A DNA stretch of 11,464 bases from a virus (lineage: Duplodnaviria; Heunggongvirae; Uroviricota; Caudoviricetes): positions 1 through 11,464 of the IMG/VR virus record IMGVR_UViG_2737471839_000021; one strand, written 5' to 3'. Made by a program: the position numbers and the translations under genes. Each line of letters opens with the position of its first letter. Position 1 is the stretch's first letter. Shown here piece after piece: positions 1-11,464 of the stretch. The notes under the pieces are model-generated. The model saw nothing but the letters and a program-made list of their open reading frames with translations. It was not told the DNA's origin and did no database searches.

Positions 1-384
1 GCATACGAGATCGCAAAGGACTATTACGCTGGTGTGATGGCGAAAAAAGGCGTGGTATCAGGCGAAATTGACAATGATATCTGGAAACAGGCTGTTAACG
101 TAGCTACAGGTGGCGTGCATGACTATAACGGAATGGGGAATGTTCTTTTGCCGTGGGGAATGTCTGCAGAGCAATTCGATAAGCAGGTTAATCAGGCTTG
201 GAATGAACAAGTTGTCGGCACAGGGATAAAAACACCGCCTGGTCAGTATGGTTTGCAAAGTTACGGCGATAGTCAGTACCTGGTAAAACTTGGGACTGGA
301 TATCTGCTGAAGGATGATGGTTCTCCTGTTGTTCTTGATCTGACACAGAAGCGTCAGAGATTCTCCGGAGATATTCCGCAATGA
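1..384 (+). CDS. 3' fragment of a phage virion gene; the 5' end lies upstream of the window
   Basis: Frame 1 is open from base 1 to TGA at 382-384, so the listed 34..384 ORF is a 5'-truncated gene. Its stop overlaps the next start (ATGA at 381-384), typical of coupled phage structural operons. No recognisable motif. Confidence 0.5.
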   Translation, partial: AYEIAKDYYAGVMAKKGVVSGEIDNDIWKQAVNVATGGVHDYNGMGNVLLPWGMSAEQFDKQVNQAWNEQVVGTGIKTPPGQYGLQSYGDSQYLVKLGTGYLLKDDGSPVVLDLTQKRQRFSGDIPQ

Positions 385-2183
385 GTTACTTTGGCCTTAA
401 TCCAGTAAACCAGAATCAGCAGCTTGACGAAGCAGTATCAAATCCAGCTGGCTTTAACAGCGATGTTGGTTTTTTCGACAATGCTGTAGGAGCGGCATTG
501 TCTGGTTTGTACTCCGGGCTGGTGGCAAAGCCAGATCAGTTGCTATGGGCAGGGATGGATAAAATCGTATCCCCGATTGCTCAGTTTGTTAACGAAAACA
601 CCTCGCTCAATGACACTTCAGTTTCATACATTGCCGAGCAGAGAAAACTAGCAGAGCAGCAGGTTAAGCGGCTGACGCCTGATGCCGCGACAACCGGAAC
701 CGCAGGGCAGGTTCTTTATGGGTTGTTCGATATGGGCGGGCAGGCTGTTGTCGGTACAACGCTCGGTGGTCAGGTCGGAGGTGCGGCGGCGGTAACTTCG
801 CTACAGGGTTTTTCTGAGTTTGAACGGCTGACAGCACAGGGTGTTGATTTCAGGACAGCGCAGGAAGCGGGATTAGTGCAGGGCATTACTGCTGGTGCCG
901 GAACATTGATCCCTATGAGCCTCGGGTTACGTGCTGGTGGTGCGCTGGCGGAAGGTGTGGCGGCTCAGCTCGCGCGGACGGGTGAGAGTTCAGTGCGACG
1001 CGCCGCAGCAACAGCAGTACGTGCAACGCCAGATATTGCCTATGCCGCAGGTACAAATATTGCGTTCGGTATGGCACAGCGTGGGCTTACTGCAAAAACG
1101 CTTCGTGATGGTGGCTATAGCGAAATGGCTAACCAGTATGATGTGTTGGATCGACAGGCAATTGCTATTGATGCTGTTCTTGGGGTGGCGTTTGGTGGTG
1201 TTGGCAGATTTATTAACTCTCGCGGCGAGTCTACAAGCGCACCAAATTTTTCACCAGTTGATGTCGATGCTGCACTGGCGGCGAATGCCGCTCATCATGC
1301 TGAAATTGATATTGCTCCCGGCGTGCCGATCAACGTGCTTTCGCGCAATTCTCACATTCAGGCTCTGCGAAAAGCTATGTCTGATGTTAGCCAGGGGAGA
1401 CCTGTAGACGTTGCCAGCATTGTTGAGTCTGCATCTTTCAGTGAAATTCCAGGGCGCAAGAGTCTGCTGTCTCAGGCAGTTAATGAGGCTCTGTCATCTG
1501 TAGATGATGGAGTAACGGCGCGCGCTATAGAAAATCGGTTGCTTGAAGAACAGGCCGCGCAGCTTTTGCCGCGTGGCGATAGACAGGTTTACCAGTCTGA
1601 AATCGCTAATAGCCAACGAATTATTGAAAATCTCACTGAACAGCGCGCACAAATTCTTGCAGAAGAGCCAACAGGTAGCGGTAAAGCTTTGTCTCGTGCT
1701 CGATCAGATAAACAGGTCAGACTTCACGATATTGACCAACGAATCCGGCAGGCACAAGAACGCCTGGAATTTTCCCGTAACGCGTTGGCACCGCATGAGC
1801 CTGGCGGTCAGTTTTTTGAAGCTCGAGCAGAACTGGCACGGCGACAGCAGGCTGAAAGTGAACTTAATGCTCAGGCTGTTTCATTCTATAAAACAGCAGA
1901 GGTAAGTACGCCAGACGAAGTAGCTCCTTTTGAGCCCGGTAAGATATTGCAACAGGCAGAACAAAAGATGATGGCAGATCCGGCAGGAGATATTGATCTG
2001 CGCATAGCTGAAGATTCGCTGCTTGAATCACCGGACATGATAATAACCGTGCTGGATGATGATGGTAATCCACAATCGCGCAGCGCGCGTGAAGTGCTGG
2101 ATGAAGCGAACAGGGAAAGTGAGCAGGCAATACACGATTCCAGCCTGTTTGATGTCGCTGTGGCGTGTTTCTTGAGAGGTTAA
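381..2183 (+). CDS. Putative internal virion / ejection protein (600 aa)
   Basis: Long ORF in operon position just upstream of the tailspike. Gly/Ala/Thr-rich low-complexity N-terminal third, charged helical C-terminal half, no catalytic motif seen. Start overlaps upstream stop. Functional label rests on position and composition only. Confidence 0.55.
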   Translation: MSYFGLNPVNQNQQLDEAVSNPAGFNSDVGFFDNAVGAALSGLYSGLVAKPDQLLWAGMDKIVSPIAQFVNENTSLNDTSVSYIAEQRKLAEQQVKRLTPDAATTGTAGQVLYGLFDMGGQAVVGTTLGGQVGGAAAVTSLQGFSEFERLTAQGVDFRTAQEAGLVQGITAGAGTLIPMSLGLRAGGALAEGVAAQLARTGESSVRRAAATAVRATPDIAYAAGTNIAFGMAQRGLTAKTLRDGGYSEMANQYDVLDRQAIAIDAVLGVAFGGVGRFINSRGESTSAPNFSPVDVDAALAANAAHHAEIDIAPGVPINVLSRNSHIQALRKAMSDVSQGRPVDVASIVESASFSEIPGRKSLLSQAVNEALSSVDDGVTARAIENRLLEEQAAQLLPRGDRQVYQSEIANSQRIIENLTEQRAQILAEEPTGSGKALSRARSDKQVRLHDIDQRIRQAQERLEFSRNALAPHEPGGQFFEARAELARRQQAESELNAQAVSFYKTAEVSTPDEVAPFEPGKILQQAEQKMMADPAGDIDLRIAEDSLLESPDMIITVLDDDGNPQSRSAREVLDEANRESEQAIHDSSLFDVAVACFLRG

Positions 2184-2188
2184 ATTAA

Positions 2189-4663
2189 ATGAGACAGGAA
2201 TGTATACAAGCGGTCCAGCAGGCGGCGCAGCGCACGTTAACGGCGCGAGAAATACAGAACATTGAAGACCGCATTTATCGAAATATGCGCTCCATTGCTC
2301 GTGATGACCCGATGTCGTGGCGACAACTTTCCGAATCAGAACGGTTGTATCGTGCAGCACAATTGGCATCTGAAGAATTACAGCGAGAAGCGGCATTAAA
2401 GAAACGTCGTGTGGCCCTCACTATAGCCGCACGTCAGAGATTGGATAAATTTATCAATAGCTATCAAGGGGCTGATGGGAAACTTGGCGCTCTTAACCGT
2501 ACTATTGCTTTTAATGCAGACGGTAAATCGAATTTCCTCTCTGTTGAATCCAGAACAAAAGCCACCCGTGATTATGCATTGAGTCGATTGCAGGAGGCAT
2601 TCGAAGCAGTTGATCCTCGCTTTTTTGGTCTGTTTGAAGATGAAGCGGGCGTACGTGACCTGGTATATGAAATGCGGGGGCAAAATACTGGCAATGCTAA
2701 AGCAAGAAAAGGTGCTAAGGCGTGGAGAGAAGTTACAGAGCTGCTGCGCCGCCGGTTTAATGATGCTGGTGGGGACATTGGCTATCTCGAAAACTGGGGG
2801 ATCCCTCAACATCATTCTATGGAAAAGGTTGGGGCGGTATCAAAAGATAAATGGGTTAGCGATATTATAGGTAAGCTGGATCGCAAATATTATACCCGAG
2901 CCGATGGACAACTGATGAACGATGCCGAGTTGTCTGCATTTCTTGGAGAGGCTTATAACACGATCGCTACTGGTGGGCTGAATAAGCTTACTGATACCGG
3001 AATGCGAATTTCCGGCGCACGTGCTAACCGTGGTAATGCATCACGACAGATACATTTCAAAGATGCAGATTCCTATCTCCAATATCAACAACTTTATGGC
3101 GATCGCTCTCTATGGGAAATCATGGTCGGTCACCTGGAAGGTATCAGTAAAGATATTGCTCTGGTGGAAACATATGGTCCAAACCCCGATCATGTTTTCC
3201 GCTCCCTTCTTGATCAGGTTAAGGCAGAAACGGCAACAGCTAACCCGAGTAAAACCGGTAAAGTCGAGCGGCTGGCGAACAACACAGAGAATCTGTACAA
3301 CTTTATTTCCGGAAAGACACAGCCTGTAGCGAATCCGCACATCGCGCGATGGTCTGACAATATCCGCAACTGGCTGGTTGCCAGCAGACTCGGATCCGCG
3401 TTGCTGTCATCGTTCTCTGATCTTGGAACCATGTATCTGTCTGCGAAGGTTACCAACCTTCCAATGAACCAGTTATTCCGCAACCAACTTGAAGCTATGG
3501 ACCCAACGAACCGTACAGAACTTGCGCGGGCGCGCCGCGCTGGTCTGGCGATGGAATCTCTACTTGGCAGCGTTAACCGATGGGCGATGGATAATATGGG
3601 GCCGTCAGTGTCTCGTTGGGCGGCGACGGCGGTAATGCGTGCCAGTGGGCTTACAGCATGGTCAGATGCGCACAAGCGCGCCTATGGCGTAACCATGATG
3701 GGAAGCCTGGGAGAAGTAGTGTCACGGACACCAGACCTTCGTAGCCTCGATGACTCTGATTTTCGTATCCTGAAAAGCAAAGGGATTACTGACACAGACT
3801 GGAGCGTATGGAAGTTGGCGCAACAGGAGGACTGGGGGAACGGTAATAATACGATGCTGACACCAGAAAGCATTATGCGTATCCCTGATTCAGCAGTTAA
3901 ACATCTTGGTGAGCCTGAACGCGTGAAATTTGAGGCAATGCGTAAACTGCTCGGTGCCGTAACTGAAGAAGTTGATATGGCTGTTATTACACCGGGAGCA
4001 CGTGAGAAACTGATAACCGGTTCTGGTATTCAGCGTGGAACATGGAAAGGTGAATTAACGAGAAGTGTTTTCCTGTTTAAATCGTTCCCTATCTCGGTTG
4101 TTATGCGTCACTGGTCACGCGCTATGGGTATGCCGTCTGCTGGTGGGCGTGCGGCATATATTGCGACGTTTATTGCCAGTACGACCATTCTTGGCGCTTT
4201 GTCGCAGCAACTTAACGACCTTGCGTCGGGTCGTAATCCTCGAGAGATGACAGGAGAAGATGCCGCAAAATTCTGGCTTGGTGCTCTACTGAAAGGTGGT
4301 GGTCTTGGCCTTTACGGTGACTTTTTATTGTCAGATCACACTAGGTACGGAAGCGGCGCGCTGGCGTCGATGCTTGGCCCGGTAGCTGGTCTGGTTGATG
4401 ACGTAGTGAAGATTGCTCAGGGCATACCGTTAAATGCTGTGGAAGGGAAGAGTGAGCAGACTGGTGGTGATCTGGTGAAGCTGGGGAAAGGTTTGATGCC
4501 AGGTGCGAATCTCTGGTACTTGAAGGCGGCTCTCGATCACATGATCTTTAACCAGATGCAGGAGTATTTTTCACCAGGCTATTTGCGTAAAATGGAGCAA
4601 CGTTCGAAGAAAGAGTTTAACCAGACATACTGGTGGCGACCTCAGGATGTCACTCCGCAATAA
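2189..4663 (+). CDS. Putative large internal virion / ejection protein (824 aa)
   Basis: Starts 6 nt after the previous stop with GAGAGG about 9 nt upstream. Uninterrupted 2.4 kb ORF with a Gly-rich hydrophobic C-terminal segment (GGGLGLYGDFLL...GPVAGLVDDV). Size and position fit the large core/ejection protein of podoviruses; no sequence search was possible. Confidence 0.55.
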   Translation: MRQECIQAVQQAAQRTLTAREIQNIEDRIYRNMRSIARDDPMSWRQLSESERLYRAAQLASEELQREAALKKRRVALTIAARQRLDKFINSYQGADGKLGALNRTIAFNADGKSNFLSVESRTKATRDYALSRLQEAFEAVDPRFFGLFEDEAGVRDLVYEMRGQNTGNAKARKGAKAWREVTELLRRRFNDAGGDIGYLENWGIPQHHSMEKVGAVSKDKWVSDIIGKLDRKYYTRADGQLMNDAELSAFLGEAYNTIATGGLNKLTDTGMRISGARANRGNASRQIHFKDADSYLQYQQLYGDRSLWEIMVGHLEGISKDIALVETYGPNPDHVFRSLLDQVKAETATANPSKTGKVERLANNTENLYNFISGKTQPVANPHIARWSDNIRNWLVASRLGSALLSSFSDLGTMYLSAKVTNLPMNQLFRNQLEAMDPTNRTELARARRAGLAMESLLGSVNRWAMDNMGPSVSRWAATAVMRASGLTAWSDAHKRAYGVTMMGSLGEVVSRTPDLRSLDDSDFRILKSKGITDTDWSVWKLAQQEDWGNGNNTMLTPESIMRIPDSAVKHLGEPERVKFEAMRKLLGAVTEEVDMAVITPGAREKLITGSGIQRGTWKGELTRSVFLFKSFPISVVMRHWSRAMGMPSAGGRAAYIATFIASTTILGALSQQLNDLASGRNPREMTGEDAAKFWLGALLKGGGLGLYGDFLLSDHTRYGSGALASMLGPVAGLVDDVVKIAQGIPLNAVEGKSEQTGGDLVKLGKGLMPGANLWYLKAALDHMIFNQMQEYFSPGYLRKMEQRSKKEFNQTYWWRPQDVTPQ

Positions 4664-4672
4664 GGAAGTGTT

Positions 4673-4846
4673 GTGTTTTTAATTATTTTGAGTGTGATAA
4701 TTTCTGGTGGATTGTTATTTATTGACCGCTACAAATATTTTCTTAACCCTCAGACTCAAGCTATTTGCTGGTTCATCTTTGTTGTGCAGGGAGTAGTTCT
4801 TGTTGCAAGCCTTATTGAGGGGAGGCCTCTTATTTTTACTGGGTAA
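4673..4846 (+). CDS. Possible small two-TM membrane peptide (about 57 aa), GTG start, absent from the ATG-based ORF track
   Basis: Frame-2 ORF open from 4664 to TAA 4844-4846. AAGGAAG (4662-4668) lies just upstream of GTG 4673; alternative starts TTG 4688 and GTG 4694. Translation ...LIILSVIISGGLLFIDRYKYFLNPQTQAICWFIFVVQGVVLVASLIEGRPLIFTG has two hydrophobic helices. It fills an otherwise empty 195-bp gap and ends 12 nt before the next gene. Non-ATG start keeps confidence low. Confidence 0.3.
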   Translation: MFLIILSVIISGGLLFIDRYKYFLNPQTQAICWFIFVVQGVVLVASLIEGRPLIFTG

Positions 4847-4858
4847 ATAGGTGACTAC

Positions 4859-5155
4859 ATGCAAGCTATAGGATTCATTGTTTATATCGTCGTTGGTCTT
4901 TTTCAGTTGGCAGCAATTATGGCTGGGCTTGAATCATGGTGGGGATTGCACTGGATAATTGCAGCCCCCATTGCTTTCATCGTGAGCTATATTCCATTTG
5001 TTGGAGCGATTGTTGGTATGGTTGGCGCTGTGGATGTATGGCGGTGGGAGTGGTGGCAGGCTGGCCTTCTCTTCTTTGGTGGGATCATCTTTGCTATTGT
5101 CTGCGGTGGAATGTCATCATTTTTCGAATGGCTATCATTCAGAAAAGGGACGTGA
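4859..5155 (+). CDS. Small Trp-rich integral membrane protein (98 aa, about 3 TM helices), unknown function
   Basis: ATG at 4859 preceded by AGGTGA. Three long hydrophobic segments (IGFIVYIVVGLFQLAAIMAGL, WIIAAPIAFIVSYIPFVGAIVGMVGAV, AGLLFFGGIIFAIVCGG) with Trp clusters at the segment borders. Followed directly by an intrinsic terminator. Confidence 0.6.
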   Translation: MQAIGFIVYIVVGLFQLAAIMAGLESWWGLHWIIAAPIAFIVSYIPFVGAIVGMVGAVDVWRWEWWQAGLLFFGGIIFAIVCGGMSSFFEWLSFRKGT

Positions 5156-5190
5156 CATGTCACAGGCCGCTTTCGCGGCCTTTTCTTTAT
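5152..5190. terminator. Bidirectional intrinsic terminator between convergent genes
   Basis: Perfect 12-bp palindrome GTGACATGTCAC (5152-5163) overlaps the TGA of the membrane-protein gene. It is followed by a GC hairpin AGGCCGC-tttc-GCGGCCT (5164-5181) and a T-run (5182-5188). On the minus strand the same hairpins are followed by TTTTCT. Confidence 0.55.
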
Positions 5191-5444
5191 GTGGTTTGTT
5201 TTCGTAATTGTTCGGCACAATAGTCGAGATGTGTTTGCAGATCCTGCATAGACATCTGTGAGCTGGTGACGTAGTTAATCAGTGCAGTCAGTTCGGCAAG
5301 TGGGCCATCGACATTAAATCCATCCTTATCGAGATCCCGGAGTAATTTCATCAAGTGCGATCCCTCCACCAGTGATCTGACGCCTCCCGGCGTGTGAATC
5401 CTTTCGGTAAATCCGTCTTCCAGTGGATAGTGATACTGCTGCAT
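5187..5444 (-). CDS. Small soluble acidic protein (85 aa) of unknown function with a LexA box in its promoter; candidate SOS-inducible antirepressor or effector
   Basis: Minus-strand ORF. The track begins at a TTG (5462), but the first ATG (5444) is preceded by GGAGAAG with about 8-nt spacing, so 5444 is taken as start. Product MQQYHYPLEDGFTERIHTPGG...DYCAEQLRKQTT has no TM segment. LexA box lies 20 bp upstream. Confidence 0.6.
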   Translation of the reverse strand: MQQYHYPLEDGFTERIHTPGGVRSLVEGSHLMKLLRDLDKDGFNVDGPLAELTALINYVTSSQMSMQDLQTHLDYCAEQLRKQTT

Positions 5445-5463
5445 CTTATCTTCTCCATGCAAT

Positions 5464-5483
5464 AACTGTATATTTATACAGTA
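5464..5483. promoter_or_regulatory. LexA (SOS) operator, near-consensus
   Basis: AACTGTATATTTATACAGTA: CTGT-N8-ACAG with an AT-rich spacer, matching the E. coli LexA consensus TACTG(TA)5CAGTA; the core ACTGTATA..TATACAGT is a perfect palindrome. Sits 20-40 bp upstream of the minus-strand start at 5444, overlapping the expected promoter. Confidence 0.65.
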
Positions 5484-5639
5484 TCAAATAATTTGTTTGC
5501 TATCCAGCACGTTTTGCAAATCACCTGAAAGGTAATATCTGTTCGTATTTATGGGTTGTCTATCCATATGTGGTTTTTCAGGTAATAGAATAACCGGATA
5601 TGCGGCGCAACGGGTGCTGCGACTATCTGGAGATTTAAC

Positions 5640-8279
5640 ATGACGGTCTCAACCGAAGTTAACCACAACGAATACACAGGTAATGGTGTTACGACCACAT
5701 TCCCTTACACCTTTAGGGTTTTCAATAAATCTGATCTGGTGGTGCAGGTTATTGACCTTGAAGAAAATATCGCTGTGCTGGCTCCTGATACTGATTACAC
5801 CGTTACCGGGGCTGGAGGATATAACGGCGGTAATGTAATTCTGTCGAAGGCACTGGCTAACGGTTATCAGATTTCTATATCGCGAGAACTGAAGGTTACT
5901 CAGGAAACAGATCTGAGAAACCAGGGTAAGTTTTTTGCTGAGGTGCATGAAGACGCGTTCGATAAGCTGACTATGCTGATTCAGCAGGTGCGCAGTTTGT
6001 TTTCTCTGGCCCTTCGTAAGCCGTCGTTTGTGGCTAACTATTATGATGCTCTGAACAACTATATTAGAAATCTTCGCGATCCCATACGCCAACAGGATGC
6101 GGCTACAAAGAACTATGTGGATATGCTTGCTGAAAATAATATAAACAAAACACTGCGTGTTCCTGAGGGTTTTATACCATCACTTCCACCTGTATCTCAG
6201 CGAAAAAACAAAATTGTAGCTATGAACGATAATGGCGTTCCAATTATGGTATTGCCGGAAAGCGGTTCTGCTGCGGATGTGCTTATAGAGTTAGCTAAAT
6301 CCAATGGCACAAATAATATAAACGGAACAAAACACGTTCTTGGAGCTGAAGCAAGAAATCTTACTGACATGTTGTCTGACGAGATATCAGTTCGTGATTT
6401 TGGTGGTAATGATGATTACGATGGAACAAATTCTGATTCATGCACAAATAACCTGATTGCTTTTCAAAAATATTTTGAATACCTGAACTCTATTGGTGGT
6501 GGGAATTTAAATATACCAAAGACAAACACAGGCAAGTATTATATTAGTGGTGATGATCATACGCATGTGTCAAGTGATATTATGATATGTGCTGATAATG
6601 ATGTTTCTATTCATCTAAATTTTTCTGGTGGGTCATCAAACACTCCATTTGCTAACCTTGACCTGAAAGCATTACGTCAAATAAAAATAGAGTATGTTAA
6701 TTTTGGTTACAATTCATATGTTGGTGGGAGAGTCGATGTTCCGTTAGGTGACTTACTGCAAACCATGAATAATGGTAGCGGTGTCTACTCAATTCCAGAA
6801 TCTCTATCAGGAGATAATTTTTTCGTTATCGCACTGGGTAACAACACCACATCAATACCTCCGATATCATCAAGTGCAGATTCTATTTTATTTAATGGTT
6901 CAGGTGTTCCAACAGCGGCCACGATAAGCGCAATGCCTGGCGATGAAATTATGTCAATGGTTAGCGCACCGGTAACAGGAGGTATCCTTGCTGGTGTTGT
7001 GACGGCCGGTGGTTATGCGTTTGTATCTCAAGATACATCAACCGGAGATGTTGTTATTGCAGAAGGTACAACTGGTCAGCCAAATATACTTAACGGATTG
7101 AATTACGCTCTGATGGACCAATTGCGCGATAGATTTGACATGGCGCTGCTATCAGTAAAAGTTACTTCATCAAGAACTTTTACTGTAATGGCGAATGGTT
7201 TGGCAGTCGCAAGCCACACGACACGCTCGACAATTCTTGGTGTCTGTTTTGGTGCTAAAGATATTAACAATACAATCAGTGTTTCTCAGATGTCGCGTGT
7301 AAGGGGGAATAGCTTTTCTGGATCAAAACCATTAAAAATATTGGTATGCGGGGATTCTATTACTGATCAAAATAACCAGTATTCATGGGCCAAATATCTC
7401 CAGATGCAGTTGGGATCAGCTGGGATTAACATTGCTGAAATTAAAAATCTGGCAGTTGCTGGCCATACGGCAGCACAGCAATTAAGCATATTGCAGACAG
7501 TAGGCGTTGGTTATGATCTGTGCTTAATTCAGGTCGGAGTTAATGATGTTCAGATGCAAACTCCTGTTTTTAGTTTTATGTCAACAATAAGTCAAATGGT
7601 TACTTATTCTAAAAGCATTGGCGCATTTCCTATTGTTGGTGTACCAACGGCTTTTTATTCTCTTGCCGAAGCGAATGCTAACGGTCAAAGAGGAGGCCAG
7701 AATACATCAAACAATAATCTTATAGGTTTGTATCGTTCTTTGCTTATACGAGCTGTGGCATCGGCTGGTGGGATTGTTAATCTTGAACCTATGAAAGGAC
7801 ATGGGGCGATGACAGCGAAGTGGCTATCGATTGATCCGTATGCTGTTAGTGACAGCATTGTATTAGATAACATTCACCCAACACCATACGGTTCAATGCT
7901 ACTTGCGCAGGGATTCTCGCGCAGCATTATTGGTTGGCTTACTCGCCCTGATTTAACAGCAACAGAAAGTTTTGAATCAATCCCTACTCAGTGGTTAAGT
8001 CCCGGTTTTGGTACGACGTCGCTACCTAAAATCAAAGGAAGAACATTATCTGGTTTAATTAGTTTACATGAAACAAACATAAATGATGGCTCATTAGCAT
8101 TTACTCTGCCTCCTGCAATAAAACTTGATCAGCCAAGAATGCTAAGCGTTATTGGTGTTGGAGACAATGATCTCCCGGTTGGTCCATGCAGCATGTATAT
8201 AGGCACTGACGGAAAATGCTATTTTTTTAACCTTGCAGCAGGAACGAAGAAAATCTCACTTGATGGAGTTGAGATTTAG
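5640..8279 (+). CDS. Tailspike / tail fibre (879 aa): T7 gp17-like N-terminal anchor, beta-helix signature, SGNH/GDSL esterase domain
   Basis: ATG 5640 with GGAG upstream. Residues about 10-150 follow the T7 gp17 N-terminal tail-attachment pattern (YTGNG..FPYTF, TDYTV, EVHEDAFDKL). Around residue 250, SVRDFGGNDDYDGTNSD resembles the (V)xDFGAxGDGxTDD opening of beta-helix tailspikes. SGNH blocks: GDSIT (Ser 573, nt 7356-7358), GVND (res 633-636), DNIH (Asp 743/His 746, nt 7866-7877). Confidence 0.85.
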   Translation: MTVSTEVNHNEYTGNGVTTTFPYTFRVFNKSDLVVQVIDLEENIAVLAPDTDYTVTGAGGYNGGNVILSKALANGYQISISRELKVTQETDLRNQGKFFAEVHEDAFDKLTMLIQQVRSLFSLALRKPSFVANYYDALNNYIRNLRDPIRQQDAATKNYVDMLAENNINKTLRVPEGFIPSLPPVSQRKNKIVAMNDNGVPIMVLPESGSAADVLIELAKSNGTNNINGTKHVLGAEARNLTDMLSDEISVRDFGGNDDYDGTNSDSCTNNLIAFQKYFEYLNSIGGGNLNIPKTNTGKYYISGDDHTHVSSDIMICADNDVSIHLNFSGGSSNTPFANLDLKALRQIKIEYVNFGYNSYVGGRVDVPLGDLLQTMNNGSGVYSIPESLSGDNFFVIALGNNTTSIPPISSSADSILFNGSGVPTAATISAMPGDEIMSMVSAPVTGGILAGVVTAGGYAFVSQDTSTGDVVIAEGTTGQPNILNGLNYALMDQLRDRFDMALLSVKVTSSRTFTVMANGLAVASHTTRSTILGVCFGAKDINNTISVSQMSRVRGNSFSGSKPLKILVCGDSITDQNNQYSWAKYLQMQLGSAGINIAEIKNLAVAGHTAAQQLSILQTVGVGYDLCLIQVGVNDVQMQTPVFSFMSTISQMVTYSKSIGAFPIVGVPTAFYSLAEANANGQRGGQNTSNNNLIGLYRSLLIRAVASAGGIVNLEPMKGHGAMTAKWLSIDPYAVSDSIVLDNIHPTPYGSMLLAQGFSRSIIGWLTRPDLTATESFESIPTQWLSPGFGTTSLPKIKGRTLSGLISLHETNINDGSLAFTLPPAIKLDQPRMLSVIGVGDNDLPVGPCSMYIGTDGKCYFFNLAAGTKKISLDGVEI

Positions 8280-8378
8280 AGTGTCAAATCAATAGTAATT
8301 ATTATCCGTAAATGGTTTATTGTGTATGATGAGTTCACCAATAAGTGAGTTCATCATGCACGTTAAACGGTGGTTTTT

Positions 8379-8783
8379 ATGTCAGTTCAGCTAACCAGTG
8401 AGTCTTTAAATCAGTGGCTTAGTGCGGGTTCTCTTGCTGCGGTGATAGCAGGTGTTCCTCCAGAGGTGGCTTTGGGAGCTTTGGCTGGGGCGGTAATTTT
8501 TGTTACCTCAGCTATCGAGTATCCCATTCATCGTCGGGTTCTCCTGTCTATGCTCAGCTTCCTCTGCGGCCTTCTCTTTTACAAACCTACAGCATCCATC
8601 CTTATCGGTGTAGCCAGCCTGATCCCTACCATCACGCAGGACTCTTTCGAGAAAGGGATCGTCTTCTCTGCTGGCGCATTTGTGTCGTCAATTGTCGCCG
8701 TGCGTATTGGTATATGGCTCTATCACCGTTCCGATAATCCACGCGAGTTAATTCCGGGGAGAAAAGACGATGGTAACGCATGA
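8379..8783 (+). CDS. Holin-like membrane protein (134 aa from ATG 8379; GTG 8370 is an alternative start)
   Basis: First gene of the lysis cassette. Three to four hydrophobic helices and a charged C-terminal tail ([18 protein letters not shown]). Track start is GTG 8370 (M-V-F-M...), first ATG 8379 with GGTGG upstream. Overlaps the next gene by 14 nt. Confidence 0.55.
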   Translation: MSVQLTSESLNQWLSAGSLAAVIAGVPPEVALGALAGAVIFVTSAIEYPIHRRVLLSMLSFLCGLLFYKPTASILIGVASLIPTITQDSFEKGIVFSAGAFVSSIVAVRIGIWLYHRSDNPRELIPGRKDDGNA

Positions 8784-9078
8784 GCTTTTTTTACTTATCA
8801 CCAATGCGGTTATTTGCACTGGTATAGCCGTTCGAGTTGTCACATTTCGGCGAAACGGTTCTCAACACAGGCGATGGGGTGGGTGGCTGGCTTATTTCCT
8901 GATTGTTGCTGCGGCCAGCATTCCAGTTCGTGTCGCTTATGCAATCTGGTTACGCACACCAATGGTTGTGGATTTATCTGAGGTCATTATCAACGCTGTC
9001 ATGCTTGCTGCAGTCATTAAAACGCGCGGTAACGTAGTTCAGATTTTCAAAATAACGAGGTCTAAACATGGAGATTAA
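8770..9078 (+). CDS. Second holin-like / antiholin membrane protein (102 aa)
   Basis: Three hydrophobic segments with a basic C-terminus ([19 protein letters not shown]). Overlaps the upstream holin-like gene and the downstream endolysin start, so it is translationally coupled within the lysis cassette. Confidence 0.55.
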
Positions 9079-9697
9079 ACAATTCCAGCGAGCTGCTGGT
9101 ATCAGCGAGGCGCTGGCTGCACGCTGGTTCTCGCATATTAATTATGCGATGAAAGAATTTGGTATCAGCAAACCAGAAGATCTGGCAATGTTTATTGCTC
9201 AGGTCGGGCATGAGTCTGTTGGCTTCACCAGATTGCAGGAGAATTTCAACTACAGTGTCAGTGGACTGGCTAACTTCGTTCGGGCTGGGCGTCTCACTCA
9301 GGGGCAGGCTAATGCACTGGGTCGCCGTGCTGGTGAACCACCATTGCCACTCGAGCGCCAGCGAGCGATCGCCAATCTGGTGTACAGCAAACGCATGGGG
9401 AACAATGCCCCTGGTGATGGCTGGAATTACCGGGGACGCGGACTTATCCAGATTACCGGTTTGAATAACTATCGTGATTGCGGAAACGGTCTGAAGGTTG
9501 ACCTGCTGGAGAGCCCTGAACTGCTGGCGCAGGACGAATATGCGGCTCGTAGCGCGGCGTGGTTCTTCGCCAGCAAAGGATGCATGAAGTATACCGGAGA
9601 TATTGCACGTGTAACTCTGATTATCAATGGCGGTAGGAATGGCATCGACGACAGGCGCGCGCGGTACATCACTGCCAGTAAGGTGCTGGTGGTATGA
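9068..9697 (+). CDS. Endolysin, glycoside hydrolase family 19 (chitinase-like) type
   Basis: 209 aa; ATG 9068 preceded by GAGG. Carries [12 protein letters not shown]...QENFNYS with two closely spaced Glu (GH19 catalytic pair arrangement) and GRGLIQITG. No signal peptide or TM, consistent with holin-dependent release. Stop overlaps the Rz start (ATGA at 9694-9697). Confidence 0.85.
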
Positions 9698-10176
9698 TCT
9701 GGGCATTCGTAAAAGCATACTGGAAACAGTTGGTTATCATGGCGATGCTTGCTGTTCTGGTTATATCAGGAGTTGTAGCCTGGAATGCACACGGCAGTCG
9801 TCAGTACGACGCCGGGTATGCGCAGGCGAAAGAAGACTGCAAAGCCGAAGAAGAAAAAGTTCGTCAGCACCACGAACAGGAGAAAGCGACCAATGAACGT
9901 GAAGCGCAGCAGAGGATCGAACAGGCGCGCAGTGATGCTCTTGATGCTGCCGCTCGCGCTGGCAGGTTGCAGCAACAGCTCGTTGCCATCCGTGAGCAGC
10001 TCAGGCAGTATAACGCCATTGTCGGCGCTGGGTCGTCAGCCGCAGATACCGGAGTTTTGCTTGCCGACGTGTTCAGCAAATCTCTCGAGAGAAATAGACA
10101 ACTGGCAGAGTATGCTGACCGGGCAGCCGAAGCCGGAAGAGTCTGCGAAAAACAGTACGACACCATGACCAGATAG
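9694..10176 (+). CDS. Rz: Rz-type inner-membrane spanin (i-spanin), 160 aa
   Basis: N-terminal TM anchor ([21 protein letters not shown]) followed by a charged, coiled-coil-prone periplasmic domain. Immediately downstream of the endolysin and contains an embedded +1-frame lipoprotein ORF. Confidence 0.8.
9893..10168 (+). CDS. Rz1: Rz1-type outer-membrane lipoprotein spanin (o-spanin), embedded in Rz in the +1 frame
   Basis: Within track ORF 9785..10168, Met at 9893 begins [28 protein letters not shown]...: basic n-region, hydrophobic core, lipobox LAGC, then a Pro/Ser-rich short mature peptide. Start could alternatively be Met 9935. Entirely inside Rz. Confidence 0.7.
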   Translation: MNVKRSRGSNRRAVMLLMLPLALAGCSNSSLPSVSSSGSITPLSALGRQPQIPEFCLPTCSANLSREIDNWQSMLTGQPKPEESAKNSTTP

Positions 10177-10325
10177 CATGGCATTTTTCATGGTACTGAT
10201 TTTTGGTGACGGTATATAAAACGGTATGGTGAAAATCATGTTGCAGAAAGTTGTTGTCAGTCAATTGGTTATGTATTTCGTAAATAATTGAGTGGGAATG
10301 ATTTGACCCTGCACTATGAATGAAC

Positions 10326-10356
10326 AAAACCCTCTGTTACTACAGAGGGTTTTTTA
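10326..10356. terminator. Intrinsic terminator downstream of the lysis cassette, probably bidirectional
   Basis: AAAACCCTCTGT-tact-ACAGAGGGTTTTTT: 10-12 bp GC-containing stem, 4-nt loop, T6 tract on the + strand. On the minus strand the same stem is followed by TTTT, downstream of the convergent gene ending at 10394. Confidence 0.65.
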
Positions 10357-10393
10357 TCTTCAAGAATTATAGGATTGAAGTTACTAACATCGA

Positions 10394-10933
10394 TTAATTA
10401 AACCAGCTGTCCGATTTGTTCTCTTCTGCTTTGCCCACGCTTTTCATCAGATCGCGACCGCCTTCAGTCATATTTCTGTTGGCGTCAGCTTCAGATTGCA
10501 CCACATCGGTTTGCGCAGCTTTGTGCTTCAGTTCCTGATCGATAAATTCGTTTTCTCGCTTAACGCGGGCTTCTTCTTTCGCCAGCGCCAGTTTTTGTTT
10601 CTGAATCTCTAAGCTGCGTAGCTCATCTTCATAACTTTGATCGCGTTTTTTGTCCGCAGAGGCTTCGGCGTCCAGTTTATCCTGACGAGCTTTCTTATTT
10701 GCCGCTGCCGTTGCCGCTCTTTTGTTAGCGGCGGCCTGGGCATTTGCGCGACGTTGCTTCTCTTGCTGGATTTCCCTGTTGCGCTCCGCGACCCATTCGT
10801 CATGCTGCCTTTGCTCTTCATTTTTACCTTGCTGTTCCGCTTCTGCGACAGCAGAGAGTTGATCCTGCAATGATGAGGCGATAGCCGGATAGCTTAAGGA
10901 GGCTAAGATGGCGCAAAGAAAAACTTTCTTCAT
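10394..10933 (-). CDS. Secreted, highly charged (K/E/R/A/Q-rich) probable coiled-coil periplasmic protein (179 aa)
   Basis: N-terminal signal peptide MKKVFLCAILASLSYPAIA with an AxA cleavage site, then low-complexity charged helical sequence. RBS AGGAGGAG upstream on the minus strand. No enzymatic motif. Confidence 0.6.
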   Translation of the reverse strand: MKKVFLCAILASLSYPAIASSLQDQLSAVAEAEQQGKNEEQRQHDEWVAERNREIQQEKQRRANAQAAANKRAATAAANKKARQDKLDAEASADKKRDQSYEDELRSLEIQKQKLALAKEEARVKRENEFIDQELKHKAAQTDVVQSEADANRNMTEGGRDLMKSVGKAEENKSDSWFN

Positions 10934-10948
10934 GACTCCTCCTGATTA

Positions 10949-11464
10949 TTAGCTCTTTTCAGGACATTTGGTATTTGGCTGAATACGCGTTTCGTTATAC
11001 GTCGTGGTAATAACAACGGCTAAACCTGTCGTAAACTGGCACTCTTTACCCACCTGGGTAGAGGTATACACTTTGGTGCCTTCCTTATAGGTTAAAGAAA
11101 CACCTTCCACTAAGGTTTTATCATTCACCATAGAACCCGCTGCCGCGCCTACAGCTCCGCCGCCAACTGCACCTGCCGTCGTTCCGGAATTGCTGCCAGA
11201 CCCGACGTTGTGGCCGATAACACCGCCAGCGACTGCGCCAATAAGCGCGCCGAAGGCTTGTGCGTTCCGTTTATTTTGGGAGTTGTCTACGGCAACTTTT
11301 GCGGGAAGAATGGAAATAATATTAACGGTTTTAGTTTCTTGTTTGGTATTCAGTTGATCGGTTTGATAAACATCGGCAGCATGATCGTCAGCATTTGACT
11401 GGCATCCTGCCAGAGTGAATGACGCTAACATTGCCACAGGCAGAAGACATTTTTTAAATTTCAT
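10949..11464 (-). CDS. Outer-membrane lipoprotein with glycine-zipper domain (SlyB / 17-kDa-antigen-like), 171 aa
   Basis: Start ATG is the last 3 nt of the window (11462-11464). Lipoprotein signal MKFKKCLLPVAMLASFTLAGCQ with lipobox LAGC. Central GALIGAVAGGVIGHNVGSGSNSGTTAGAVGGGAVGAAAG is a glycine-zipper motif as in SlyB-family lipoproteins. Runs 15 nt upstream of the secreted-protein gene on the same strand, a likely two-gene operon. Confidence 0.7.
   Translation of the reverse strand: MKFKKCLLPVAMLASFTLAGCQSNADDHAADVYQTDQLNTKQETKTVNIISILPAKVAVDNSQNKRNAQAFGALIGAVAGGVIGHNVGSGSNSGTTAGAVGGGAVGAAAGSMVNDKTLVEGVSLTYKEGTKVYTSTQVGKECQFTTGLAVVITTTYNETRIQPNTKCPEKS

Follow-up and report, generated by a model that had tools for sequence, protein, structure and literature searches.

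Between the last large virion gene and the tailspike gene of an integrated tailed phage, two small membrane-protein genes run towards a gene under apparent LexA control, and this arrangement raises the question of whether the three form one functional module or separate units that share a border. The locus occupies positions 4664-5483 of a stretch of 11,464 nucleotides (nt) from IMG/VR virus record IMGVR_UViG_2737471839_000021 (positions 1 to 11,464), referred to here as the window. On the plus strand are open reading frames (ORFs) of 57 and 98 amino acids (aa) with two and three predicted transmembrane (TM) segments, and facing them on the minus strand is ant, which encodes a predicted antirepressor (Table 1). 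A preliminary description of this DNA suggested that all three could form one module for defence or lysogeny control, by comparison with P22-like phages. It appears quite probable instead that the region is the junction of the core/ejection and tailspike-lysis operons of a Uetakevirus prophage, and that it holds two independent units, an SOS antirepressor gene and a cassette of envelope-protein genes.

The independence of the two units is seen in their distribution across 5426 complete E. coli genomes. The ant gene with its LexA box occurs in 529 of these and the terminator that separates it from the membrane genes in 532, while the 57- and 98-aa cassette is found in 216; only 48 genomes have ant and this cassette contiguous as in the window. 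Other cassette types are present as well, one resembling gp21 of phage phiV10 (54 genomes) and one encoding a 186-aa protein (56 genomes). Most prophages carry 1-3 kilobases (kb) more cargo between the terminator and ant; Bro-N proteins, toxin-antitoxin pairs (YafO or HicAB), DUF2335, pRha and a secreted peptide of 53 aa are part of it. In the window the arrangement is at its minimum, and the terminator hairpin sits between two stop codons, 6 nt past that of ant. Because ant and the membrane cassette assort independently, the single SOS-gated module of three genes is not supported.

A signal-peptide protein of 50-53 aa (MKKA..AFAGNCQHDSDTAADGSRCGGRSADSRPGG; phrog_14503, 'membrane associated protein', moron category) recurs in relatives from E. 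coli, Klebsiella and Salmonella (loci L015 5522-5683, L017 3340-3498, L018 5840-5992 and L020 7736-7888), where its gene lies immediately beyond the terminator and is read from the other strand; it is absent from the window. Also absent is orf10 (L026 6498-6656), another small cargo gene between the terminator and ant, from phiv142-3 of avian pathogenic E. coli (APEC), which has the same 57- and 98-aa cassette. It was reported that orf10 raises serum resistance and K1 capsule gene expression (PMC7724020), and cargo at this locus can therefore affect host fitness.

The regulatory unit is of a known kind. Judged by sequence, the SOS-controlled gene is an orthologue of the ant gene of Salmonella phage SPC32H, and this part of the locus is thus already known rather than new. 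Its product matches PDB entry 5d50_E, 'Anti-repressor protein' (E=1.7e-47, residues 8-91 covered), is identical to SPC32H_020 'ant' at 74 of 84 residues (88%), and shares about 83% identity with epsilon15 gp19. Among PHROG families it matches phrog_450; a second match, to the anti-repressor family phrog_1760, is weak and partial (E=4e-7, C-terminal 50 aa). The mechanical ORF call (5187-5462, minus strand) gives a 91-aa protein with a TTG start, but this version is an ORF-calling artefact: translation almost certainly begins at the ATG at 5444, as in RefSeq and in the PDB homologue, and a ribosome-binding site (RBS), GGAGAAG, lies ahead of it at 5450-5456. The SPC32H switch of Ant, Rep and LexA is reportedly that of Kim & Ryu 2013 (J Virol 87:11775) and Kim et al. 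2016, with structures 5D50/5D4Z in the PDB. In SPC32H, self-cleavage of LexA leads to production of Ant, which inactivates the lytic repressor by protein-protein interaction (PMC7380047), acting via the C-terminal tetramerisation domain of Rep (PMC9986798); the mechanism is also summarised in PMC9638917.

The cis-elements around ant are conserved along with the protein. The core of the predicted LexA box, CTGT-N8-ACAG at 5466-5481, is weak evidence when taken alone (0.14 expected per window), but the whole 20-mer agrees with the E. coli consensus TACTGTATATATATACAGTA at 18 of 20 positions, a match found in none of 200 shuffles. The box is kept in phiV10, SPC32H and epsilon15, where the DNA on either side of it is no more than about 75% identical. 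No second LexA box occurs in the window, nor in the other 31 kb of a 99.4%-identical prophage in E. coli strain 22-245, which is sited between guaA and yfgI; ant is therefore the single SOS input. The convergent, LexA-controlled gene of the preliminary description is present on the minus strand, and the lysogeny-control function proposed for it fits the SPC32H-type Ant and consensus-like box described here. In function it is an analogue of ant from the immI region of P22.

A second element, the 17-bp palindrome ATCACCTGAAAGGTAAT, has one match in the window against 0.03 expected, is kept in five phages, and aligns with a site that the epsilon15 record annotates as a repressor binding site. In its general form, ATTACC-N5-GGTAAT, the palindrome has eight copies in this prophage type; the seven outside the window, against 0.05 expected, lie in the related-prophage locus L028 at 2838, 8390, 8452, 9164, 11495, 11557 and 19280. 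The sites are distributed over int, the surroundings of rep/cro, the starts of late genes and the tailspike gene, and as a set they are probably Rep operators. A possible second ant promoter, TAGACA-17-GATATT, is seen at 5562-5534 on the minus strand. The copy in the window could place either the tailspike-lysis operon or this second promoter under direct Rep control.

The candidate target of Ant is the Rep homologue of the 22-245 prophage (L028 8525-9109), which matches 5d50_A (E=4e-42) and, over residues 89-190, the C-terminal fragment 5d4z_A. It contains helix-turn-helix (HTH) domains only, and a Peptidase_S24 domain, of the kind used for LexA-like autocleavage, is absent from it. In a lysogen, LexA would occupy the predicted box over the ant promoter; after DNA damage, LexA cleavage would allow Ant to be made, and Ant would bind the C-terminal tetramerisation domain of this uncleaved repressor. 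Breakage of the Rep tetramer would then vacate the operators, including that at 5520-5536, and the prophage would be induced. Experiments on the 88%-identical SPC32H protein have established this route there, and orthology together with the conserved cis-elements leads us to expect it here.

The names in current records obscure this switch. E. coli records annotate ant only as 'hypothetical protein'. The ZX5 paper gives the name 'anti-repressor' to a Bro-N domain protein in the cargo region (PMC9782041), and several records likewise apply that label to the Bro-N cargo protein (phiV10 p23/p24 region). Beside the Bro-N gene of ZX5 lies an SPC32H-Ant orthologue that is 98.9% identical to the Ant of the window and is labelled hypothetical. 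Of complete E. coli genomes, about 10% have the gene, APEC and extraintestinal pathogenic E. coli (ExPEC) strains among them, and the prophage type is a common one. Correct naming of its induction switch would aid work on induction, on antibiotic-triggered phage release and on phiV10-like phage tools.

The other unit is a slot with exchangeable contents. Its upstream border is the gp17-like gene, which shares 97.8% nt identity with phiV10 as far as the stop codon, and it ends at the conserved terminator; the tailspike gene is the downstream border of the whole region. Identity to phiV10 ends exactly at the gp17 stop (4666) and returns at the terminator (5151); between these points, 484 bp of the window stand in place of phiV10 gp21, an unrelated 46-aa two-TM peptide. 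A peptide of this same 46-aa type also fills the slot in SPC32H, and a third type, of 64 aa with two TM segments, does so in epsilon15. Salmonella Muenchen has a 58-aa two-TM peptide with a 128-aa lipoprotein, APEC O1 a two-TM-like ORF with a 126-aa lipoprotein, and Cronobacter a 99-aa three-TM protein alone, abutting the core gene. Signal-peptide proteins of 186 aa (strain AZ 190 and the 56 genomes counted above) and 283 aa (strain IR53017) are further alternatives. In strain AREA_486, where the gp17 lineage is only about 24% identical, the 98-aa protein recurs in identical form behind a 123-aa signal-peptide protein. In each of these alternatives the location and strand are unchanged, and the shared terminator comes next.

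Relatives of the 98-aa protein also occur beyond this arrangement. In another Salmonella podovirus, one that has a T7-type terminase, a 94-aa homologue lies behind the gp17-like gene, and stand-alone copies are found beside integrase or Bro-N genes or in another mobile element. The same core allele can, conversely, be paired with unrelated slot proteins: the gp17 proteins of loci L023 and L005 (Cronobacter) share 93% aa identity, yet that of L023 is followed by the 186-aa secreted protein and that of L005 by the 99-aa three-TM protein. Such near-identical core alleles with different slot proteins argue against an obligate partnership with gp17 and for exchangeable accessory cargo. Comparison across relatives finds the cassette swapped between prophages, and the differing slot contents bear out the earlier view of the stretch from gp17 to the tailspike as a site for variable cargo. 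Envelope localisation is the property shared by this cargo. The 57- and 98-aa genes would thus encode interchangeable accessory envelope proteins, of uncharacterised families, in a moron-type slot.

Both small ORFs are real conserved genes under purifying selection. The possible two-TM peptide and the Trp-rich three-TM protein of the preliminary description are both present as given there, the former with two hydrophobic segments and conserved in five genera, the latter with three hydrophobic segments and eight Trp among its 98 residues. An RBS, AAGGAAG, precedes the 57-aa ORF, which has homologues in 13 clusters (56-58 aa, 67-98% identity) from E. coli, Citrobacter, Klebsiella, Salmonella and Enterobacter; in both divergent members whose context was examined, the homologue begins about 10 nt past a gp17-like gene. 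Relative to Klebsiella phage BUCT711, the ratio of nonsynonymous to synonymous differences (pN/pS) is 0.28 for the 57-aa ORF, where third codon positions account for 18 of 34 differences, and 0.05 for the 98-aa ORF. In position, but not by sequence homology, the 57-aa peptide corresponds to phiV10 gp21, SPC32H_019 and epsilon15 gp18. RefSeq leaves it unannotated.

Enterobacterales contain 52 close homologues of the 98-aa protein (from E. coli, Klebsiella, Cronobacter, Dickeya, Kosakonia, Yersinia and Salmonella), and its family is marked by the conserved motifs GLESWWG and YIPxxGxIVGMVGAxxxWxWxWWQAxLLFFG. An AlphaFold2 (AF2) model (predicted local distance difference test score, pLDDT, 90.3) consists of helices at residues 2-28, 32-42/46-59 and 65-97, that is, three membrane-length helices, the second of which is kinked at a Pro. 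When 1.8 billion representatives are searched with a profile, about 750 clusters at 50% identity are recovered. Some of these are fused to zinc-ribbon, RDD, DUF805 or MORN domains, but the fusions are uninformative on function. Of the cluster names looked up, one is 'RDD family protein', and the rest are either 'hypothetical' or missing. Scans with Pfam, NCBIfam and PADLOC return nothing for either membrane ORF, including Pfam-A at E<=0.01 with its Imm_superinfect family; PADLOC at E<=0.1 detects no defence family in any of the three proteins of the locus (57-aa, 98-aa and Ant). The 57-aa ORF likewise has no PHROG, Pfam or NCBIfam match. For the 98-aa protein, a PDB sequence search finds nothing, and a Foldseek search of the AF2 model against BFVD and the PDB gives chance-level matches only (E>3).

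Two annotation problems attach to this pair. The two ORFs share a frame in the window and could be read as one gene split by a stop codon, but this idea is rejected because both stay intact in ECO_2_R despite a 1-nt indel that unlinks their frames. In some genomes, a 1-nt indel leads PGAP (the Prokaryotic Genome Annotation Pipeline) or other callers to extend the 98-aa gene by an out-of-frame overlap with the 57-aa ORF (L015 5056-5490). The resulting 'long' forms of 144-149 aa are annotation artefacts in another frame.

The membrane genes are probably transcribed with the late operon by read-through, as judged from the gaps of 9 nt (gp17-like gene to 57-aa ORF) and 12 nt (57-aa to 98-aa ORF), the lack of a promoter match, and the shared terminator. 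Scans by consensus only find no promoter-like site on the plus strand in 3600-4860, and promoter scans across the window and upstream of stand-alone 98-aa homologues remain at chance level. In the expression table for phiv142-3, which lists up-regulated genes only, orf12, the homologue of the 98-aa gene, is not included. The hairpin that ends this transcript had been called a bidirectional terminator. On the plus strand it is a canonical one, with a U-tract; on the minus strand it is followed by GUGACAUGUCAC, with no directly adjoining U-tract, and only half of the description holds. The RNA folds have z scores of -2.7 (plus) and -4.0 (minus), and the phiV10 and epsilon15 records annotate the hairpin as a terminator. 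A candidate internal terminator at 4816-4832, within the 57-aa ORF, was rejected, as it is no more stable than shuffled sequences (z +0.68).

What the membrane proteins do is a matter of more tentative readings. It may be that they hinder the entry of related phages at the inner membrane and are functional analogues of P22 SieA or T4 Imm, a suggestion that we favour only cautiously and at somewhat less than an even chance. The predicted two-TM and three-TM proteins (4673-5155), flanked by the gp17-like gene and the tailspike, hold a SieA-like place, by positional analogy only. More doubtful is the broader proposal that the whole post-gp17 slot is a hot-spot of interchangeable envelope proteins, each of which would block the incoming ejection conduit of a rival Uetakevirus and so resemble SieA in function. 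The main rival to the exclusion reading, although an unlikely one, is that the membrane proteins act only in lytic growth, in lysis timing, membrane conditioning, or late protection of the infected cell or progeny. Their strand and spacing, the absence of a promoter match, and the single terminator after the pair all fit late expression; the tailspike and lysis cassette come directly after, and the three-TM layout, read from sequence as N-out/C-in, resembles that of class I holins. However, the phage is already equipped with two holin-family genes as well as an endolysin and a spanin. The 98-aa family shows no profile similarity to either resident holin (Phage_holin_8 and Phage_holin_3_7; hhalign probability <1%) or to Pfam holin families, and the slot alternatives include lipoproteins and soluble secreted proteins, which are unfit for a holin or antiholin role. 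Stand-alone 98-aa copies beside integrase genes also occupy a typical moron position.

A structural role is much less probable. The membrane proteins would then be dedicated and essential partners of the core or ejection proteins, as an assembly chaperone or a component of a trans-envelope conduit, and it is true that a small membrane or envelope gene directly follows the last core gene in every related podovirus examined, even where gp17 is only 24-27% identical. This partnership is opposed by the exchange described above: the same gp17 allele occurs with unrelated slot proteins (phiV10, L023 and L005), the identical 98-aa protein stands behind two gp17 lineages, and more than one localisation class (TM hairpin, lipoprotein, periplasmic) is represented in the slot. 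Virion studies of epsilon15, moreover, reportedly did not detect gp18. It is also improbable that the 57-aa ORF is a spurious frame in a spacer ahead of the 98-aa gene. It is unannotated by RefSeq and PGAP, starts with GTG, has a low GC content (about 39%), and lacks family matches, but Klebsiella, Salmonella, Citrobacter and Enterobacter all keep the frame unbroken at 67-80% aa identity, and it occurs without a 98-aa gene downstream. Its pN/pS, third-position differences and RBS, and the two-TM peptides at the same position in phiV10, SPC32H and epsilon15, point the same way. The least probable of the alternatives is the single defence or lysogeny-control module, in the manner of sieA and immI of P22-like phages. 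Although the three genes are adjacent and convergent, with one hairpin in common, and P22 has sieA and immI at an analogous position, their distribution largely refutes it: 1-3 kb of unrelated cargo can separate the units, ant is found with entirely different slot genes, and the 98-aa gene occurs without ant nearby. Nor is the phage P22-like, and it lacks sieA, mnt and arc homologues.

Several observations weigh against the preferred reading of an SOS antirepressor beside an independent envelope cassette. No sigma-70-like promoter is found upstream of the membrane genes, and these ORFs have no homology to SieA, Imm, PADLOC models or holins, and no informative fold match. The rep gene lies outside the window and is seen only in the near-identical 22-245 prophage, and Rep and Ant are unequally similar to their SPC32H counterparts (42% and 88% identical), which leaves the Ant-Rep pairing as one that we infer. 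A similar asymmetry of Ant and Rep conservation is seen in epsilon15. This same inequality suggests that Ant recognises a conserved surface of Rep, and Ant could thus cross-induce heterologous Uetakevirus prophages, as the Gifsy antirepressors do.

The assignment to Uetakevirus comes from the window as a whole, which comprises the right-hand 10.3 kb of an epsilon15/phiV10-like (genus Uetakevirus) E. coli prophage and flanking host genes. The best DNA matches are phiV10, Escherichia phage YDC107_2 and other Uetakevirus genomes; YDC107_2 matches 4664-5483 over its whole length (97.9%), and phiV10, phiv142-3, HEMP4, PAS61 and ZX5 match it in blocks. The attR core, ATTGAGTGGGAATGATT, is present once in the window, adjoins yfgI/yfgH, and is the published attachment core of phiV10, epsilon15 and ZX5. 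The prophage is integrated at guaA, and this core of guaA-integrating Uetakeviruses is its end. The matches and the attachment core contradict a P22-like identity.

Table 1. Annotated features of the window, in order of position, with the evidence for each.
Feature	Position	Strand	Evidence and remarks
gp16-like gene	381-2183		order in window
gp17-like gene (824 aa), last large virion core/ejection gene	2189-4663	+	phrog_684 'virion structural protein', E=0
57-aa two-TM hairpin peptide	4673-4846	+	GTG start 9 nt past upstream stop; hydrophobic residues 1-20, 28-51
98-aa Trp-rich three-TM protein	4859-5155	+	PHROG 3075 (phrog_3075, E=1.6e-54, 'unknown function')
Intrinsic terminator of late/cassette transcript	5164-5191	+	7-bp GC stem 5164-5181, then UUUUCUUUAU
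ant (85 aa), LexA-repressed antirepressor (by orthology)	5187-5444	-	PDB 5d50_E, phrog_450, SPC32H_020
LexA (SOS) box, predicted	5464-5483		about 20 nt upstream of ant ATG; overlaps TATAAA(T) -10-like hexamer of ant promoter
17-bp palindrome, Rep-operator type	5520-5536		ATCACCTGAAAGGTAAT; between ant and tailspike gene
Tailspike (879 aa)	5640-8279	+	phrog_1640 and many tail PHROGs at N-terminus; Pfam Lipase_GDSL_2, residues 570-751
Rz-like gene (DUF2514)	9694-10176		embedded +1-frame ORF with lipobox, 9785-10168
attR core	10287-10303		ATTGAGTGGGAATGATT
Host genes yfgI (DUF5384) and yfgH (glycine-zipper lipoprotein)	10394-11464	-	

The flanking genes agree with this placement. The gp17-like protein is 28% identical to epsilon15 gp17, and its phiV10 homologue is gp20. 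In the 22-245 prophage it is the third large gene after one annotated 'virion core protein, T7 gp14 family', and because three large genes follow this core gene, the earlier name of ejection-protein genes is a reasonable one. The gp17-like stop codon (4663) and the tailspike ATG (5640) stand 976 bp apart, rather than about 0.8 kb as first described. The tailspike combines an epsilon15-type N-terminal head-binding region with a C-terminal SGNH/GDSL esterase domain, which implies a receptor-destroying enzyme, putatively of the O-antigen deacetylase type; relatives have endosialidase, glycoside hydrolase family 28 (GH28) or beta-helix spikes at the same site. Downstream of it are the two holin-family genes, a GH19 endolysin gene, an Rz-like spanin gene, attR and host yfgI/yfgH. 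The ORF embedded in the Rz-like gene has the look of an Rz1-type o-spanin frame inside that of the i-spanin. Rfam detects zero RNA families in the window.

The overall design of the region is ordinary, and the lead worth testing, a modest one, is the envelope-protein slot. If the exclusion reading is true, the 98-aa protein represents a new and widespread exclusion family, on the scale of the clusters counted above. The slot would also be a cheap and well-defined place to seek superinfection-exclusion proteins against O-antigen-specific podoviruses, and such proteins would bear on phage therapy and host-range prediction.

Among known systems, P22 offers the same order of last ejection gene, inner-membrane protein, antirepressor and tailspike, and its gene 16 and gene 9 enclose sieA, mnt, arc and ant. 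The earlier comparison with its sieA/immI region is apt as a positional analogy between unrelated lineages. P22 SieA blocks DNA entry, acting on the gp16/gp20 ejection conduit (PMC10883804). However, sieA lies on the opposite strand with its own promoter, whereas the membrane genes of the window are co-oriented with the late virion operon and abut it. The 98-aa family profile has an hhalign probability of 0.2% against P22 SieA, and the motif FxRYPxEAxxFNK of SieA types A-C is absent from both membrane ORFs. P22 Ant, moreover, is a 300-aa protein controlled by Mnt, Arc and sar RNA rather than LexA. The window lacks sieA, mnt, arc and P22 ant alike, and 4664-5640 contains no Mnt/Arc ribbon-helix-helix ORF or 300-aa P22 Ant ORF, the 85-aa ant being its sole regulator gene.

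The regulatory logic is shared with other LexA-controlled small antirepressors, Tum of coliphage 186, GfoA/GftA of the Gifsy prophages and AntC of N15, in which an uncleaved repressor is inactivated by binding of a LexA-repressed small antirepressor (PMC3121763, PMC7380047). These differ in genomic position, and the ant of the window has no dinI partner. The membrane proteins resemble T4 Imm, HK97 gp15 and 'morons' as small inner-membrane proteins from exchangeable genes beside virion genes, and the 98-aa family, like morons, also stands alone near integrases. They differ in lacking a Pfam (Imm_superinfect) or PADLOC match, and no promoter/terminator pair of their own is detected. In comparison with SPC32H, the host here is E. 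coli and Rep is only 42% identical. With SPC32H and epsilon15 the phage nevertheless shares the genus Uetakevirus, an orthologous Ant, a conserved LexA box and Rep-operator palindrome, and an HTH-only Rep homologue, and in all of them ant faces the end of the core-gene operon while its promoter faces the tailspike gene.

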